A stretch of DNA of 64,000 bases from sequence record PZ534511.1; one strand, 5' to 3'. Every line of letters starts with the position of its first letter. Position 1 is the stretch's first letter. Of this stretch, positions 54,117-62,322 are shown one piece after another. Source of the DNA: a phage. Both the position numbers and the translations under genes were made by a program. A model generated the notes under the pieces. That model was given only the letters and a program-made list of their open reading frames with translations, had not been told where the DNA came from and made no database searches.

Positions 54117-56189
54117 TTATGAGAAGTCTGGAGGGACAACATCTTCTACATACCCTTTCAGAGCAACCTGCCCCATATGAAGCACGGTAGAATCTCTGGC
54201 TGTAACAGTGATGCTGTCAGACATTACTTGCGGGTATGCCCACACATACTGTTTTACCTCAGGGTATCTATACTCTATGGTTGCCATGTTTCCGCAGATA
54301 CATCTCCATAAAAATTCTTGGTAATTCCTGGTTGGGTCGTAGCCATATACCGGAGCAAGCTCTTTACTAGGAACGAACCCTGCAAGGTATTGTATTTCAG
54401 ACGGTTGCCAACCTAACTTAACGATAGGTATGTTTACAGACTCTTTTGCCTTTTCAATACCTCCCTGCATCACCCAATCGTAGCACTCGGTGCAGAAGAA
54501 ATCAAGAGCACCTGCTTCTTTTTTATATTGGTCAGCAAGGTTCAGCTTTTGCGTAAGCTCTGTTTCCATAATGGTTGGGAAAAACAGCAGAGCTGTCATC
54601 TGAGCTGATGCAGCGTGTGCCTTTATTGCCTTTGAAATGGCCGCAATACGAGCGCCAAGCTTACCACGACAAAATGCTACATACTTGTCGTAAACACCGC
54701 CAGTTTTAGGATCGTCAATAGTCCCAATATCTAATGCATACTCACCTGTCTCATCATAAAACGCCTGCTTTGTAGGGTAATCATAAATACAAGGTCTACG
54801 AGTATCGGTATTGTACCACCACCACGGTTCACCAACCTGCATAATCACTGGCAGGTTGTTTCTCATAGCGGCTGATGCAAAATTCTTAAATACTGCAGTA
54901 AGGAAATTCATACCCTCTTCAATGGTTGGAGACAGGAGGTAGCTACAGGGTGTATACCCTGTTTTAGCGTAGTTATCGTTCCAGTCTCTTTGGGTCCATT
55001 CCAACGGGCAGGCATCGCTGAAAAGCTCAAAACTTACAGATTGCATAACGTCGAAGTTATGTCGTTTGGCATTGTACATAAAATCATCATGCCATTTATA
55101 AGCTGCAGCGTTTAGCGCCCCTGTTCTGTTTATAGACCATTGGGTTCCTGACCATGTGTAGTCATAATAATGACTCATACCAACATAATGGTTTATGGTT
55201 CCGGTATAGCCCAGACGCTTGATATTGTTCAACACCCTTAAAGGAGATACGTTCCACATATCGTCATATGCGGTGCAGATCCCAACGTCGTGCTCTTTAA
55301 CCTGAATATTGTTAAGTTGCATCATTTTCCAGCCTGTGTCTGGCTGGAGCAGATCTAGGCGCAACTCACACTCTACATTTTCCGTTCTCGGGTCTGTGCT
55401 ATTACTTACCCAGTCTTTAGGCATAAGCGGTATTAAAATCCTTCTCACCTGTCGAGGATCAACACCCATCATGTTGTTGTTCTGATCCATCCCGACGCAG
55501 TCCTCGAAATCAATATGAATCTCTGCAACATTCTTATCCTCTGAGATGCTGACAGCATATTGAGCTAAAGGAACATAGATGATTGTGCCATCAACAAGGT
55601 CTACAGTCATAATCATCTTTTCAGGGGTGGAGAAGTTGCTGGCATTGGTTATTGACATTCTGAACCAAAGCTTGGTGTTTCTCATCTCATAGTGATCATC
55701 AAACCCAATACCGAAATGGTCATACTTGTCAACTGTTTCCCAAATGCACCCAGCCATACCTCCATATGTTCTTGACACTAAACGGTTAATACAACAGTTG
55801 TTATCTGCAACAATACAGGTACTTTCAGTCTGCTGAGTAGTTGTAACCCAATACCTTGGGTGAAACATTCTCTCCTCAACAGTATCCCAAGATATCCTGT
55901 CAAGATTCTCATCTGAAACTATTGTACATTTCGCCCTTTGTGTTCCAATCATCACCCCTTGAGATTTTGATGAAAACTCCATAAAGAAGCTTCTTGGCAA
56001 CCTGTTGGGTAATTTGTCAACAATTTCCACTGGGATCTCAATACTGGTTGCCCCAATTGGGATAGTTACATCACCCTCAACATGATTATAATCCCTACCA
56101 GGAACGGCAGTATCCTGAACTGTGCGGTAATGAAACCGTGCAGCCATTGTAGAGTAATCACGGTAAGGTTTAAAAATAGCTGTTGCCAT
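54117..56189 (-). CDS. tail/baseplate-associated structural protein (690 aa)
   Basis: Large ORF in the tail module; Trp/Tyr-rich; function not assignable by eye. Confidence 0.45.
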   Translation of the reverse strand: MATAIFKPYRDYSTMAARFHYRTVQDTAVPGRDYNHVEGDVTIPIGATSIEIPVEIVDKLPNRLPRSFFMEFSSKSQGVMIGTQRAKCTIVSDENLDRISWDTVEERMFHPRYWVTTTQQTESTCIVADNNCCINRLVSRTYGGMAGCIWETVDKYDHFGIGFDDHYEMRNTKLWFRMSITNASNFSTPEKMIMTVDLVDGTIIYVPLAQYAVSISEDKNVAEIHIDFEDCVGMDQNNNMMGVDPRQVRRILIPLMPKDWVSNSTDPRTENVECELRLDLLQPDTGWKMMQLNNIQVKEHDVGICTAYDDMWNVSPLRVLNNIKRLGYTGTINHYVGMSHYYDYTWSGTQWSINRTGALNAAAYKWHDDFMYNAKRHNFDVMQSVSFELFSDACPLEWTQRDWNDNYAKTGYTPCSYLLSPTIEEGMNFLTAVFKNFASAAMRNNLPVIMQVGEPWWWYNTDTRRPCIYDYPTKQAFYDETGEYALDIGTIDDPKTGGVYDKYVAFCRGKLGARIAAISKAIKAHAASAQMTALLFFPTIMETELTQKLNLADQYKKEAGALDFFCTECYDWVMQGGIEKAKESVNIPIVKLGWQPSEIQYLAGFVPSKELAPVYGYDPTRNYQEFLWRCICGNMATIEYRYPEVKQYVWAYPQVMSDSITVTARDSTVLHMGQVALKGYVEDVVPPDFS

Positions 56190-58482: not shown

Positions 58483-61400
58483 TTAGTCGTGAGACTCGTT
58501 CCAAGGTCCCTGGAAGCTAGAGTTTGAACGACTTACTATCACAGTAGGACAGGATATTGTAACACCTGTTATAGCTGAGGTGGACCAGCGTGTGTAAATT
58601 TCAACAATAATGTCTATGGTCTGTTCACCCAGCCCTGTTATCCCGACTGCACACATACCATCGTTGTCGTTACCATACTTCTTGCCAGCGAGCAACTGGT
58701 GCCCCGCTATCCACACATTCAACTGGGAGCCTCCTAGAGTTCCGTTAAGCTTAAAGAAGAATGTTACGTTCTTACCTTGTCCTTGAACGTTATCCACGTA
58801 TCTCCATCTCCAACGGCAAACCTGCTGCTGAGAGTTGTATACTGGAGGACAGTCACCGTAGGTCTTGTGTGCAACTATTGCACCTTCGAACTGGTTAGCA
58901 CGAATAACAGAAGCCTCTACACGCCCACGGAAGGTACCTCCGGTTGCATCTATGGTGCCCCTAAAGCTACCGTTATTGGCATAAACATCCCCACGGAAGG
59001 TACCACTGGTGGCGTTAACTGCCCCTGTGAAGTTACCAGAACTGGCGTTGATGTTGCCTTTCACCCATACATCCATAAATTGGGCGTGCCCGTTCTTGTT
59101 AATATACCAACCGTATTTATGGTACCCGTTGCCATCGTAGTTGTTTGACGAAATTTCTTGTGCGATCTTGGCAGAAGAGATCGTGCCATTCTCTATAAAA
59201 GCGTCTTTCAAGAACGCTTGGTTGTTCTTGATTGCGAAAGCAAGGGTTGCTGTTCCATTTCCGGGGTTGTATACCGCAAAGTTGTTTGCACTAACCATGA
59301 AGTAGGATTGAACTTGGCCCCCAGACCCTTCCATCCCCAACTGGATACCTGCAACATATTTATTCCCTGCGGAGTCTACCTGTATTTTTGTGCCCCATTG
59401 AGCATTTACTTTACCCTCTAAGTCGGTTACAGCCTTAGATGTTGTAGCTACTGCAGCCCTAAGCTCAGATACATCCCCAACATCATTGATGATCTCCTGC
59501 TTAGCGACAGCAAGTTCTTGACGAATAGCTGACGCTGTGCCGTTGATAAGGTCCACAGTGGCTTTGTTGGTATCGGAAATTGTAGCATCCAGCGCTGTTT
59601 TTGTGGAGGTCAGTTTTCCATCCAAAGCATCAATCGCTTGCTTGTTGGTAGAGATCTCCCCACGTGCAGAAGTTATTTGCTCTGACAGTGCAGATGTTTT
59701 CTGATTCAACAAGTCAGTGGTGGCCTTGTTGGTATTGGCAATCAAGGTGTTGAGGTCAGTTTTTGCGGTAGTTATCTTGCCGTCAAGGGTGGTATAGTTT
59801 TTAGATACCGTCGCGTTTGTCTGACTAATCTTTTGATCCAGAGTTTCAGATGTCCTGTTCAAAAGATCTACAGTGGCTTGGTTAGTGCTCAAGATGCTTG
59901 CGTCAAGTTCTGTTCTCTGAGTATTGATCTTACCATCCAGAGTTTTATCTCCGGCTAAATACCCGCTCTCAACTCCCCCTATCTGCTCTACCAGCTCACC
60001 TTTGGCGGCAACCAATTTCTCATCTAAAGCCTCTGTCTTTTTGTTCAGAAGATCAGTAGTTGCTTTATTGGTTGTCTCGATTAGAGATGCCAGTCTGCCA
60101 CTTTCAGTGTTCAGATCGTTGGTGAATTTGTTCTGTGCAGCAACAAGTTTCCTATCCAGCGCTGTAATGTTACCATTGACATCTTCAAACTTCTGAGTTG
60201 TTTCTGTAACTACCGCACCTATTCTGTCCCCAAGTTGCTGGAACGCTTCATCTACCCTACCATCCATGTACCTGTTAAGTTCTGTGACACGATTTTCAAC
60301 CTCTTCAATAGAGGAATCCAAAGTGCTCATCAACTCTTTATAAGTTTCTGTCTTTTTGAATTCAGCATCTATCTGAGGCATCAAATCCTCAATAGAGGTG
60401 TAGCAGCGTGCAGCGCATTCTACAAACTGAGAACTACCAAAAGCGTTTGTGGTTCGAATATACCAATAATAAACCTTATCGTTCTGCAGACCTTCAGATG
60501 TCCAAGTTGAACCAACACCCATACGGGTGGCGTTTGAAGTAACGGTTGCATCACTGGTGTCTGGCAACCTTGTCATACCGGATGTCCAAAAGTCATACTG
60601 GGTGCTAACACTTGCTAAATCCCTACTATGCGGAATCAAGGTGATAGCAAAGTATCCTTGCTTAACCTCTACAGAAACCGGAGCTTCAGGTGCCTGAATG
60701 TTAAACTCACAATACGCTTCTGGAGATACACCACCTTTATAAGATGTTGCAACCACGGTTGCTGTGTATGACCCTTTGGTCAAACCTTCTACTCTGACAA
60801 ACTGCTCAACTGTCTGTGCTGTCCAAACAATCTCTCCGTTCTTTCTTACCTGCACAATATTTTGAGCGTAAGTCCCAACGTTGTCCCAAGCCAAAACACC
60901 GTGAGTTACTTCCCCAGCTTGGAGAACGGAGTATCTGAAGTTTTGCGGTTGAGCTACACCAGATGGAGATATCGGAATATCTACATTGCCAGAATCCGGA
61001 AGTTGCCCTGTGGCATCATTCCACTCTTTAGCATCTTGACGAAGTTTTACCTTGACACCACCCTTTTTGGTAAACTCCCATTCAAGAACCCTCATTTCTT
61101 GGCCCACTATACCTATACTTGGAAGGTTCATTGTAACGTAACGACCAGGTTTAAATTTAAAACCTCGCATATTGCAGGTGACTTCAATAATCCTGCCAGC
61201 TCTCGCGCGTCTTAAGAAGATTGCAGAAACACGCTGAGCTTGATAAGGGCTGGTAACAAAGCGATAGTCTATATCGATTATCTTTCTTTCTCCATCCTTC
61301 TCTATCCACTCTGGGACAAACACTGATGGAAAATCTGTTTCAGAATACCCTTTGGTCGGACTAGTGAATCTGCCGGTTATTGTGTTGGATCTTTTGTCAA

Positions 61401-62322
61401 ATGAGGCTTCCGGGTAGATCTTGACCTCACCACAGACACAATCCTCACTCAGTGTCATTGTTGCCGGGCCATAGTATGCACCAACCAGCAAACCATACTT
61501 ACCAGCTACATAGCTGAGATCTGCGCCACAAGCTTTCAGCATTTCTGCCATAATACTTGCTGGGGCCTCATCCATATCGAACTCGCCATTAATTGTGTAA
61601 CGACGCTCGCTGGTTCCGTCTGCGTTTCTTACAGCCTCGTCGCATATGTTGGCAGCCTCCTTGAAGGACTCCCAGTTGATGGTTTCGTCAGGACATTTAA
61701 GGTACGTTCTTAAATAGTCCAGAATCACCAAGGCAGCGTTATTGGTATACACCTCTTTACTAGTGCGAGGATCATAGCATTTTTTACCAACCTTGACGAG
61801 TGTGACGTTTGGCAACCCAAAAGGAAACTTGTTAGGGTCAAACCTAAAGCTGACCCGTAGCCAACTGATCCCTCTACCTATCATGTCCGGTGACCACGAT
61901 GGGCAGTGTGTGCCCATGAAAGGATCAGAGGTTTTTCTATCGTTATGTAGCTCCCACGATACCAAATCCCCATACGAAGAAATAGGATTACCGTCGATAA
62001 GTATATCTTCTATACCTTCCAGAGGGTGATTGGCAAGAACAATAGCACAATGAAGGGTTCTGTCCCTGTCCTGCTCCAAAAACGCAAGCAATCCAGATGT
62101 ACGTGTCTTCCCATACACTACAGAGCAAGGTGCAGCAGAAGATCTGAGAAGCTTTTGTCTATCTTGCTGACTTCTGTAAGATTTGTTTCCCTCGAAAATC
62201 TTATCCAGAGTTCTGGTGGTAACAGTGTTCAGGCTGTCAGCCAGAGCTGCCTTGGATGCGTTCCAGTCATAACTTGAAGATCTTGCAGAAGCAACGATGT
62301 TATCAATCATTGCAATTGGCAT
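58483..62322 (-). CDS. central tail fibre / tip attachment protein, lambda gpJ-like, with coiled-coil repeat insertion
   Basis: Segments KQGYFAITLIPH..YYWYIRTTNAFGSSQFVE and KIQVDSAGNKYVAGIQLGMEGSGG..FMVSANNFAVYNP align with lambda gpJ regions ([64 protein letters not shown]); repeated TDLLN[KQ]KT..L[DS][EQ]K units. Confidence 0.7.
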   Translation of the reverse strand: MPIAMIDNIVASARSSSYDWNASKAALADSLNTVTTRTLDKIFEGNKSYRSQQDRQKLLRSSAAPCSVVYGKTRTSGLLAFLEQDRDRTLHCAIVLANHPLEGIEDILIDGNPISSYGDLVSWELHNDRKTSDPFMGTHCPSWSPDMIGRGISWLRVSFRFDPNKFPFGLPNVTLVKVGKKCYDPRTSKEVYTNNAALVILDYLRTYLKCPDETINWESFKEAANICDEAVRNADGTSERRYTINGEFDMDEAPASIMAEMLKACGADLSYVAGKYGLLVGAYYGPATMTLSEDCVCGEVKIYPEASFDKRSNTITGRFTSPTKGYSETDFPSVFVPEWIEKDGERKIIDIDYRFVTSPYQAQRVSAIFLRRARAGRIIEVTCNMRGFKFKPGRYVTMNLPSIGIVGQEMRVLEWEFTKKGGVKVKLRQDAKEWNDATGQLPDSGNVDIPISPSGVAQPQNFRYSVLQAGEVTHGVLAWDNVGTYAQNIVQVRKNGEIVWTAQTVEQFVRVEGLTKGSYTATVVATSYKGGVSPEAYCEFNIQAPEAPVSVEVKQGYFAITLIPHSRDLASVSTQYDFWTSGMTRLPDTSDATVTSNATRMGVGSTWTSEGLQNDKVYYWYIRTTNAFGSSQFVECAARCYTSIEDLMPQIDAEFKKTETYKELMSTLDSSIEEVENRVTELNRYMDGRVDEAFQQLGDRIGAVVTETTQKFEDVNGNITALDRKLVAAQNKFTNDLNTESGRLASLIETTNKATTDLLNKKTEALDEKLVAAKGELVEQIGGVESGYLAGDKTLDGKINTQRTELDASILSTNQATVDLLNRTSETLDQKISQTNATVSKNYTTLDGKITTAKTDLNTLIANTNKATTDLLNQKTSALSEQITSARGEISTNKQAIDALDGKLTSTKTALDATISDTNKATVDLINGTASAIRQELAVAKQEIINDVGDVSELRAAVATTSKAVTDLEGKVNAQWGTKIQVDSAGNKYVAGIQLGMEGSGGQVQSYFMVSANNFAVYNPGNGTATLAFAIKNNQAFLKDAFIENGTISSAKIAQEISSNNYDGNGYHKYGWYINKNGHAQFMDVWVKGNINASSGNFTGAVNATSGTFRGDVYANNGSFRGTIDATGGTFRGRVEASVIRANQFEGAIVAHKTYGDCPPVYNSQQQVCRWRWRYVDNVQGQGKNVTFFFKLNGTLGGSQLNVWIAGHQLLAGKKYGNDNDGMCAVGITGLGEQTIDIIVEIYTRWSTSAITGVTISCPTVIVSRSNSSFQGPWNESHD
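59450..60300 (-). repeat. tandem imperfect DNA repeats encoding coiled-coil heptad units inside the gpJ-like gene
   Basis: Recurring units such as GGTCCACAGTGGCTTTGTTGGTATCGG, GTCAGTGGTGGCCTTGTTGGTATTGG, ATCTACAGTGGCTTGGTTAGTGCTC, ATCAGTAGTTGCTTTATTGGTTGTC. Confidence 0.6.

Follow-up and report, generated by a model that had tools for sequence, protein, structure and literature searches.

A putative coiled-coil shaft made of repeat units, and its length alleles, in the gpJ-like central tail fiber protein of an rV5-like coliphage

The central fibers of F-type pyocins and siphophages (PyoF10/PA0641; PDB 25vf) consist of a hub, FN3 domains, a long helical shaft and a DUF1983/beta-prism tip, and structures of the F-type pyocin shaft show a three-stranded coiled coil (PMC13455828; bioRxiv 10.64898/2026.02.24.707460; PMC12874032). 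We found the same order of domains, with a probable hub, in the product of a gene located in a 64,000-nucleotide (nt) stretch of phage DNA (sequence record PZ534511.1, referred to here as the window) that comes from an rV5-like (Vequintavirus) Escherichia coli myophage. The gene is the ortholog of rV5 gp37 and codes for a gpJ-like hub and central tail fiber protein of 1279 amino acids (aa), whose helical shaft, with its repeat units and length alleles, is the subject of this work. The pyocin fiber is related to it in sequence (E = 1e-15 with the whole protein and 3.8e-16 with the segment), with aa 871-1078 of the query aligned by phmmer to residues 985-1184 of the F2-pyocin fiber, and pyocin and siphophage shafts are kinked at a Gly, as predicted for the query shaft, and vary in length between lineages. 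However, the query particle is a contractile myophage, and its shaft of about 305 aa is approximately twice as long as that of the pyocins (163-178 aa), is visibly built from repeat units of 44-65 aa with their own signature, and has a periodicity of 11/3, in contrast to the unbroken heptad register described for the pyocins. The query shaft shows no enrichment of the sequence pattern linked to fold switching in F-type pyocins (PMC12874032).

Lambda gpJ (PDB 8iyk, 8xcg-8xck) aligns with the query over the FN3/Ig_J and tail-tip domains and provides the best structural matches of its distal part, and the order of the upstream genes resembles the M-L-K-J order of lambda. However, lambda has a short helical neck where the query has about 330 residues, and the C-terminal receptor-binding domains are unrelated. 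In the Vequintavirinae, RBPseg modeled the central fiber (class TC5) with a large coiled coil and already noted its siphophage type, and the accessible part of that text mentions neither the repeat units nor their number nor an allele series (PMC12143355). The tail needle of P22, gp26 (PDB 4lin), is also a trimeric coiled-coil tip fiber and showed a weak similarity (E = 4e-4, aa 809-934 versus 100-223) that is probably compositional; gp26, in contrast, is a small protein of its own, serves to plug the tail of a podophage, and lacks hub, FN3, and DUF1983 domains. The related phage phi92 was discarded as a structural guide, since it has a hub and an iron-loaded spike instead of this fiber. Coiled-coil rods made of tandem blocks are also found in streptococcal M proteins and in the stalks of trimeric autotransporters, in which the number of blocks varies by strain and changes the reach of the molecule; M proteins have near-identical DNA repeats that recombine frequently, while the copies in the query are only about 50% identical in their DNA and the length alleles are old.

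A variable-length coiled-coil shaft is already known in J-like central fibers, including those of the Vequintavirinae, and the one described here is an ordinary representative of this fiber class. Its repeat architecture, the series of two, three, four, and six units, the mosaic boundaries, and a deletion found in O157 typing phage 14 (TP14) appear to be undescribed in the open-access papers that we searched: neither the alleles nor the deletion are found in the open-access text of Maffei 2021, Cowley 2015 (which makes no mention of the TP14 deletion), Kropinski 2013, RBPseg 2025, or phi92 2026. Interest in central-fiber shafts is growing, both for their role as docking platforms and for the fold switches that store energy in F-type pyocins, and rV5-like phages are widely used in O157 typing, biocontrol, and therapy cocktails. 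The gp37 shaft is modular, with 2-, 3-, 4-, and 6-unit forms whose boundaries are sharply set by conserved flanks. It provides a natural length series for testing the effect of shaft length on adsorption through O-antigen, enterobacterial common antigen (ECA), or capsule layers, and for learning where fibers can be cut and rejoined in engineering.

We consider it likely that this part of gp37 is a hendecad-rich, three-stranded coiled-coil shaft of ~305 residues that originated by ancient duplication, and that its 3-, 4-, and 6-unit versions are old cassettes exchanged by recombination in the flanks, with rare events at microhomologies. The repeat is evident in the comparison of aa 646-975 against itself, in which the best off-diagonal 15-aa window scored 65 with BLOSUM62 (mean 29.7 and maximum 44 in 300 shuffles) and 83 windows scored 40 or more (0.02 expected from shuffles), the strong windows falling on diagonals 51, 54, 62, 105, 113, and 167. 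A hidden Markov model (HMM) of the unit found four tandem copies of 62, 51, 54, and 65 aa, with 65-89 bits each (Table 1). An initial annotation of this DNA had proposed tandem units of 25-30 aa; the tandem repeat is real and far beyond chance, but the period was wrong, the units being 51-65 aa long. The three strings quoted there as units correspond to one and the same portion of consecutive units, with spacings of 62 and 51 aa, and a composition of two related 25-30-aa halves per unit was also discarded, as no diagonal between first and second halves reached the threshold in the self-comparison. The location assigned to the repeats, 59450-60300 (aa 675-958), was roughly right, the array spanning 59398-60093 and the whole helical segment ~59479-60393.

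Eight positions (L1, I5, T8, N9, T12, D14, L15, and N17) are invariant in 13/13 units from three alleles, which gives the signature L-x3-I-x2-T-N-x2-T-x-D-L-[LIV]-N, while identity among units is otherwise merely 30-50%. In unit 1 the motif reads TNKATTDLLN (60043-60072), and a vestigial fifth copy lies at the junction between shaft and tail tip. Upstream of the array there is a degenerate 44-aa "unit 0" (aa 700-743), revealed by a 44-aa diagonal that joins 716/721 to 760/765 and by a weak HMM match at 715-736. A motif scan did not find the signature anywhere else in the 64-kb window. An exhaustive HMMER search with the four-unit array against 1.84 billion representatives returned five of them, with the signature in two rV5-type clusters (50% identity) only, and when the shaft by itself was used for a word-indexed homolog search, three fragments were all that came back. 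Neither search gave a wider family or a deeper shaft alignment, and by these searches the unit family is confined to the rV5-type phage group. Three candidates were rejected as relatives: P0117 and P0118, which are compositional coiled-coil matches, and P0116, an unrelated fiber-like protein that has in common only the half-motif NYTTLDxKI. This last protein (482 aa, metagenomic) has approximately 10 copies of SNYTTLDTKIDxTKxEL, which matches the second half of the units described here (NYTTLDGKITTAKTDL); the half-motif NYTTLDGKITTAKTDL may be a more widespread coiled-coil building block.

The segment between aa 646 and 975 contains 0.3% proline, no cysteine, and 2.4% aromatic residues. Its strongest hydrophobic period is 3.65 residues (11/3), with a power of 190 versus 30 ± 12 in shuffled sequences (0 of 500 shuffles reached 190), and the power peaks in the proximal part of the shaft (aa 644-743). 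Hydrophobic autocorrelation has peaks at lags 4, 7, 11 (the highest), 14, 18, and 22, a pattern indicative of a hendecad-rich coiled coil. The shortest unit of any allele is 44 aa (4 x 11), and most of the longer units have 7, 18, or 21 additional residues, which keeps the phase, the exceptions being those of 47 and 54 aa (+3 and +10). AlphaFold2 (AF2) models of the monomer consist of two helices, aa 644-785 (142 residues) and aa 799-948 (150 residues), followed by beta strands from aa 959, with a predicted kink in unit 1 as the sole interruption of the shaft. The 3-unit allele does not have the 18-aa extension in which this kink is located and was predicted as one unbroken helix of 210 residues, with a predicted local distance difference test (pLDDT) of 82-96. 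The coiled-coil character proposed in the initial annotation is hence consistent with these predictions of a nearly proline-free helical segment with coiled-coil periodicity. Foldseek searches of the AF2 model against PDB gave no meaningful matches for the long helices; only the tail-tip part was informative, with the lambda central tail fiber in its closed and open states as top matches. Weak phmmer similarity (E ~1e-3 to 0.4) was also seen between aa 870-975 of the shaft and residues ~45-135 of the fusion glycoprotein F of respiratory syncytial virus (7mpg_A and related entries), and it is probably compositional.

Comparison of the 999-nt shaft segment across a phage collection (~115 genomes) yielded four length classes, whose unit counts were obtained by translation and HMM scanning. 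Four units (998-999 nt, product of 1279 aa) are present in about 58 records, among them rV5 and FV3; three units (755-758 nt, 1199 aa) in 43 records of the "nom" type (LL12, FFH2, and several BASEL phages); six units (1301-1304 nt, 1381 aa) in 13 records of the "WM" type (BP9, ECML-10, ECP32, and NHEP1); and two units (684 nt, 1174 aa) in a single record, TP14. The number of repeats is therefore not invariant among isolates, in agreement with what had been anticipated, and segment length is invariant within each allele class. Units 3-6 of the 6-unit allele are orthologous to units 1-4 of the query (82, 96, 67, and 88% aa identity, respectively), and the two units that it has in addition, of 44 aa each, represent older paralogues of unit 1. 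Unit 2 has only 2 aa changes in 51 between the 4- and 6-unit alleles (96% aa identity versus 78% nt identity; proportion of synonymous differences [pS] 0.85, nonsynonymous divergence [dN] 0.035) and is under the strongest purifying selection in the array; even so, TP14 has lost most of it, and no clear ortholog is present in the 3-unit allele. One GenBank record, MG065646 ("Campylobacter phage D1"), has a shaft segment of 988 instead of 999 nt, and the protein cluster that matches it (P0009) is a truncated product of 958 aa with the Ig_J_second domain only; this is a frameshift or sequencing error. At least 18 MG0656xx records labeled "Campylobacter phage," with Campylobacter jejuni as host, are rV5-like coliphage genomes and include all three major shaft alleles, so their host labels look unreliable.

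Sliding-window comparisons showed that the flanks of the shaft are 92-100% identical in nt to those of other alleles, while identity falls abruptly between ~aa 660-680 and aa 978, to 50-57% against the 3-unit allele and to 64-79% against the 6-unit allele. Compared with the 6-unit allele, the query has a pS of 0.66-0.88 (saturated) in units 1-3 but of 0.08-0.20 in the FN3, proximal helix, and tail-tip regions, with dN of 0.03-0.26. Saturated synonymous sites inside the cassette together with near-identical flanks indicate old alleles kept under purifying selection and exchanged by recombination in the flanks. The exception is TP14, whose sequence is that of the 4-unit class (95% identity) with exactly 315 nt removed, in frame and with units 2 and 4 fused in register; in a three-way DNA alignment the junction falls inside the 10-nt word AAGCCACTGT common to both units. 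TP14 is thus a genuine recent contraction mediated by microhomology.

The initial annotation had also expected the protein units to be mirrored by imperfect tandem repeats in the DNA, able to expand and contract by slipped-strand events. At this level, Tandem Repeats Finder (59.4-60.3 kb, minimum score 30) detected no tandem repeat, and a general repeat search of the region gave just short matches with two or three copies. Codon-aligned units are 47-54% identical in nt, the residues that coincide between units mostly use differing codons, and the longest exact words in common are 7-11 nt. All that persists of a DNA repeat is a statistical excess of repeated 8-12-mers over codon-shuffled sequences (10-mers, for instance: 14 observed and 1.2 expected), and the array is too diverged to be prone to slippage. 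If this were a contingency locus, frequent misalignment of DNA repeats at replication would change the number of units at a high rate within populations and thereby tune the length of the tip. Such a locus would account for the different copy numbers among isolates, for the excess of short words, and for an exact unit-register deletion between 10-nt microhomologies such as that of TP14, but besides the degree of divergence of the units, the ~58 4-unit records all measure 998-999 nt and the 43 3-unit records 755-758 nt, the differences between classes are ancient (saturated synonymous sites), and there is only one recent in-frame change of unit number in ~115 genomes, which makes it very unlikely. 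Slipped-strand length change is therefore reduced to the contraction of TP14 (1 of ~115 genomes), the 3-, 4-, and 6-unit forms being ancient cassettes, and the expectation of a fast-switching locus has to be corrected.

Concerning the structure, each unit could form a helix-turn-helix in a folded-back bundle of the apolipoprotein or spectrin type, with no fiber shaft at all; a unit of ~54 aa would fit two helices of 22-27 residues, and there were Pfam matches to Apolipoprotein, ApoLp-III, and SF-assemblin, along with a weak phmmer match to ApoE. Nevertheless, all such matches are below the curated cutoffs, AF2 placed no turns inside the units and left the helix of the 3-unit allele uninterrupted, proline is missing and Gly-rich breaks are confined to unit 1, and a parallel trimer is favored both by the three-fold symmetry of the surroundings and by the homologous shaft whose structure is solved, so we discarded the apolipoprotein-like bundle as hardly credible. 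A different proposal, compatible with a shaft in the virion state, is that the coiled coil is metastable and refolds to a beta-prism on receptor binding, opening the tail tip, with more units making a larger prism. He et al. showed this switch in the F7 pyocin and predicted it for 21/24 siphophage central fibers (PMC12874032), and this precedent adds to the position of the shaft directly N-terminal to the DUF1983/beta-prism "seed," to the homology of the last units to the pyocin fiber, to an 11-residue periodicity that equals the strand repeat of the SxSxxMxxLxS pattern, and to the fact that three of the four full pattern matches lie within aa 921-974, adjoining the tip domain. However, with residue classes that are a crude rendering of the published pattern, those four matches in aa 646-975 are not an enrichment (3.5 ± 1.9 in shuffled sequences), both monomer AF2 runs (with shallow alignments) gave helix only, the second with pLDDT up to 96, the S/M/L positions do not coincide with the invariant T-N...T-D-L-N signature, and a contractile tail does not need such an energy source; we find this switch rather improbable. 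The units, or the kink of unit 1, could also be a platform that binds other fiber or adaptor proteins, in which case repeat number would set valency and not only length. In F-type pyocins, side fibers dock on the kinked (Gly) shaft (PMC13455828; bioRxiv 10.64898/2026.02.24.707460), a precedent in line with the Gly-rich kink of unit 1, the five polar residues invariant in 13/13 units despite an overall identity of 35-50%, and the difference between aa and nt identity in unit 2, a sign of very strong purifying selection. On the other hand, the kink is missing from the 3-unit allele and most of units 2 and 3 is deleted in TP14, so unit 2 and the kink can each be dispensed with in natural alleles; moreover, in the RBPseg cryo-electron microscopy of Bas49 and Bas54, the reconstructed fibers are located in the proximal baseplate region and the accessible part of the text is silent on docking onto the central fiber (PMC12143355). 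A docking role seems improbable as well.

The reading that we favor is that of a trimeric coiled-coil shaft, formed by aa ~644-948, that would connect the beta-structured tip of the protein to the part with the hub and FN3 domains and, fully extended, would be ~45 nm long. It may have been built by ancient internal duplication of a 44-aa (4 x 11) module resembling the motif at the shaft/tip junction, after which the copies would have diverged in DNA while keeping the strict signature and the hydrophobic phase. The shaft would act as a spacer whose length is set by the number of units (~8 nm per unit) and could affect infection. The 3-, 4-, and 6-unit alleles would persist in Vequintavirus as old cassettes that move between near-identical genes by homologous recombination in the conserved flanks, and rare illegitimate events at microhomologies would yield new lengths, for instance, the 2-unit form of TP14. 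Several points weigh against this proposal. The alignment to the pyocin shaft is of low confidence in the helical part, most of its score coming from the tail-tip domain. The AF2 models of the 4-unit protein have a predicted template modeling score of 0.25-0.30, with pLDDT of only 52-74 in the first helix, and monomer predictions are blind to the difference between an extended shaft and a folded-back bundle. The trimeric state is deduced from homology and from gpJ-type hubs being three-fold, the TP14 record is one partial assembly from short reads, and no phenotype has been linked to shaft length. Besides, a plain spacer role leaves the five invariant polar residues per unit unexplained. The invariant positions and the conservation of unit 2 amount to more constraint than a spacer would require, and the polar signature T-N..T.D-L-x-N, strictly conserved in every unit, together with the extreme conservation of unit 2 at the protein level suggests a role beyond that of a passive spacer. 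An unlikely possibility is that the shaft is metastable and switches fold, or binds partners, at the tip of this contractile tail, as described for F-type pyocins, and that the balanced 3-, 4-, and 6-unit alleles would tune the reach or strength with which the tip acts through different surface-glycan layers.

The segment had been initially described as an insertion, and there are ~285 extra residues relative to lambda J. However, a helical linker between the second FN3 and the tail-tip domains is present in every J-like homolog retrieved, with 71-75 aa in a large group of J proteins of ~60-kb siphophages (anchor segments 57-70% identical to the query), 100-132 aa in other homologs, 246 aa in the second rV5-like allele, and 326 aa here; Klebsiella and Enterobacter siphophages also have long shafts. 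Instead of a foreign insertion, we are dealing with the expansion of a helical neck already resident in J-like proteins (71-132 aa in the nearest siphophage homologs). The units are similar to the conserved junction motif located just before the tail-tip domain, which suggests that the array grew by duplication of the junction segment. The first ~20 residues of the shaft (DLMPQIDAEFKKTETYKEL; 54 nt, 60334-60387, minus strand) match the J genes of ~60-kb siphophages, among them slur01, SLUR75, SeppeHuegi, and Skure, with 85-87% DNA identity, and the FN3 and tail-tip domains are 57-70% identical in aa to the same proteins. These similarities point to gene flow between the tail tips of sipho- and myophages, and conserved flanks could serve as anchors for the exchange of cassettes. 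Among other J-like proteins, the shaft of PDB 9l9p chain S ("putative tail fiber protein," 1172 aa) contains a near-perfect tandem duplication of ~33 aa (ETEALSREIDQLKAQIGDDIQASLTDIRE, twice), and heptad-like QGxLIDA repeats are present in that of P0014. Internal duplication seems to be a way in which J-like shafts have grown repeatedly and independently of each other.

Over its full length, the gene has 95-96% nt identity to its counterparts in rV5, in O157 typing phages 4 and 5, and in numerous Vequintavirus genomes, those of BASEL among them; in rV5, open reading frame (ORF) 37 is also 1279 aa long and occupies the equivalent position, and gp37 was found in virions by mass spectrometry and described as similar to COG4733 and 3CDD (PMC3606486). 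The initial label of gpJ-like tail tip protein is right, as evidenced by Pfam, PHROG 31, the alignment to lambda gpJ, and the neighboring genes. PHROG 31 ("central tail fiber J") matched with 6e-165 over aa 143-1135. The Pfam domains are Ig_J (PF24421, aa 493-545, 24.8 bits, slightly below its cutoff of 29), Ig_J_second (PF24489, aa 547-652, E = 1.2e-30), and Phage_Tail_Tip (PF09327, E = 1.2e-38). The phmmer alignment to lambda gpJ (8iyk_J, 1.5e-28) consists of two blocks, aa 497-671 to lambda 666-838 and aa 958-1116 to lambda 845-991. A Pfam scan of the query at E ≤ 0.1 gave no match to a hub domain; PF13550 is present in siphophage homologs that share 50-70% identity with the query in the FN3 and tail-tip anchor segments. 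Upstream there are three small tail-tip genes, one of them with DUF6950, and downstream a Baseplate_J wedge gene and the fiber locus, a gene order identical in rV5, Bas49, TP14, WM, and nom. This is a siphophage-type hub and central fiber in a contractile-tailed phage.

Table 1. Location of the gene for the central tail fiber and of its parts in the window
Feature	Coordinates	Strand	Evidence
Gene for the 1279-aa gpJ-like hub and central tail fiber protein	58483..62322	-	ORF; ortholog of rV5 gp37 (ORF37)
Two Ig/FN3-like domains before the shaft (aa 493-652)	60367..60846	-	Pfam; alignment to lambda gpJ 666-838
Proximal non-repeat or degenerate-repeat part of the helical shaft (aa 644-743)	60094..60393	-	AF2 helix from aa 644; top periodicity power
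Array proper, units 1-4 (aa 744-975)	59398-60093	-	Unit HMM
Repeat unit 1 (aa 744-805, 62 aa), with 18-aa Gly-rich extension	59908..60093	-	HMM 88.6 bits
Predicted helix break or kink in unit 1 (aa 786-798, SGYLAGDKTLDGK)	59929..59967	-	AF2: sole non-helical stretch of the shaft, model residues 146-158, pLDDT 36-40
Repeat unit 2 (aa 806-856, 51 aa)	59755..59907	-	HMM 77.8 bits
Microhomology AAGCCACTGT, copy 1 (unit 2), left breakpoint of the TP14 deletion	59870..59879	-	Three-way alignment
Repeat unit 3 (aa 857-910, 54 aa)	59593..59754	-	HMM 86.4 bits
Repeat unit 4 (aa 911-975, 65 aa), extends into the tail-tip domain	59398..59592	-	HMM 64.9 bits
Microhomology AAGCCACTGT, copy 2 (unit 4), right breakpoint of the TP14 deletion	59555..59564	-	Three-way alignment
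Vestigial fifth motif TSKAVTDLEG (aa 961-970) at the shaft/tail-tip junction, inside unit 4	59413-59442	-	Motif scan
Phage_Tail_Tip (DUF1983) domain, beta-structured distal fiber (aa 957-1097)	59032..59454	-	Pfam; aligns with lambda gpJ 845-991 and F2-pyocin fiber; Foldseek
C-terminal domain (aa 1139-1279), second variable patch	58486..58908	-	77-88% nt identity to TP14, WM, and nom genes; adjoining segments 96-100%

Distal to the tail-tip domain there is a second, shorter repeat (aa 1088-1135, 58918-59061, minus strand) with four copies of 11 aa, SGNFTGAVNAT, SGTFRGDVYAN, NGSFRGTIDAT, and GGTFRGRVEAS, detected as diagonals 11, 22, and 33 of the self-comparison, which is probably a rung motif of a beta-helix or prism. 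The C-terminal variable patch is possibly the receptor-contacting end of the fiber, and its variation (aa ~1139-1258, ~58549-58908, minus strand) is independent of the shaft allele. In the nearby region 54117-56189 (minus strand), the window codes for another fiber protein of 690 aa with N4 gp65-like "non-contractile tail sheath" domains (PF23845, 4e-80, and PF23844) as well as a Calx-beta domain. This protein is the counterpart of the deacetylase-type lateral fiber protein of Maffei et al., for which those authors propose ECA as target, while a 2026 receptor-screen preprint assigns the NGR polysaccharide.

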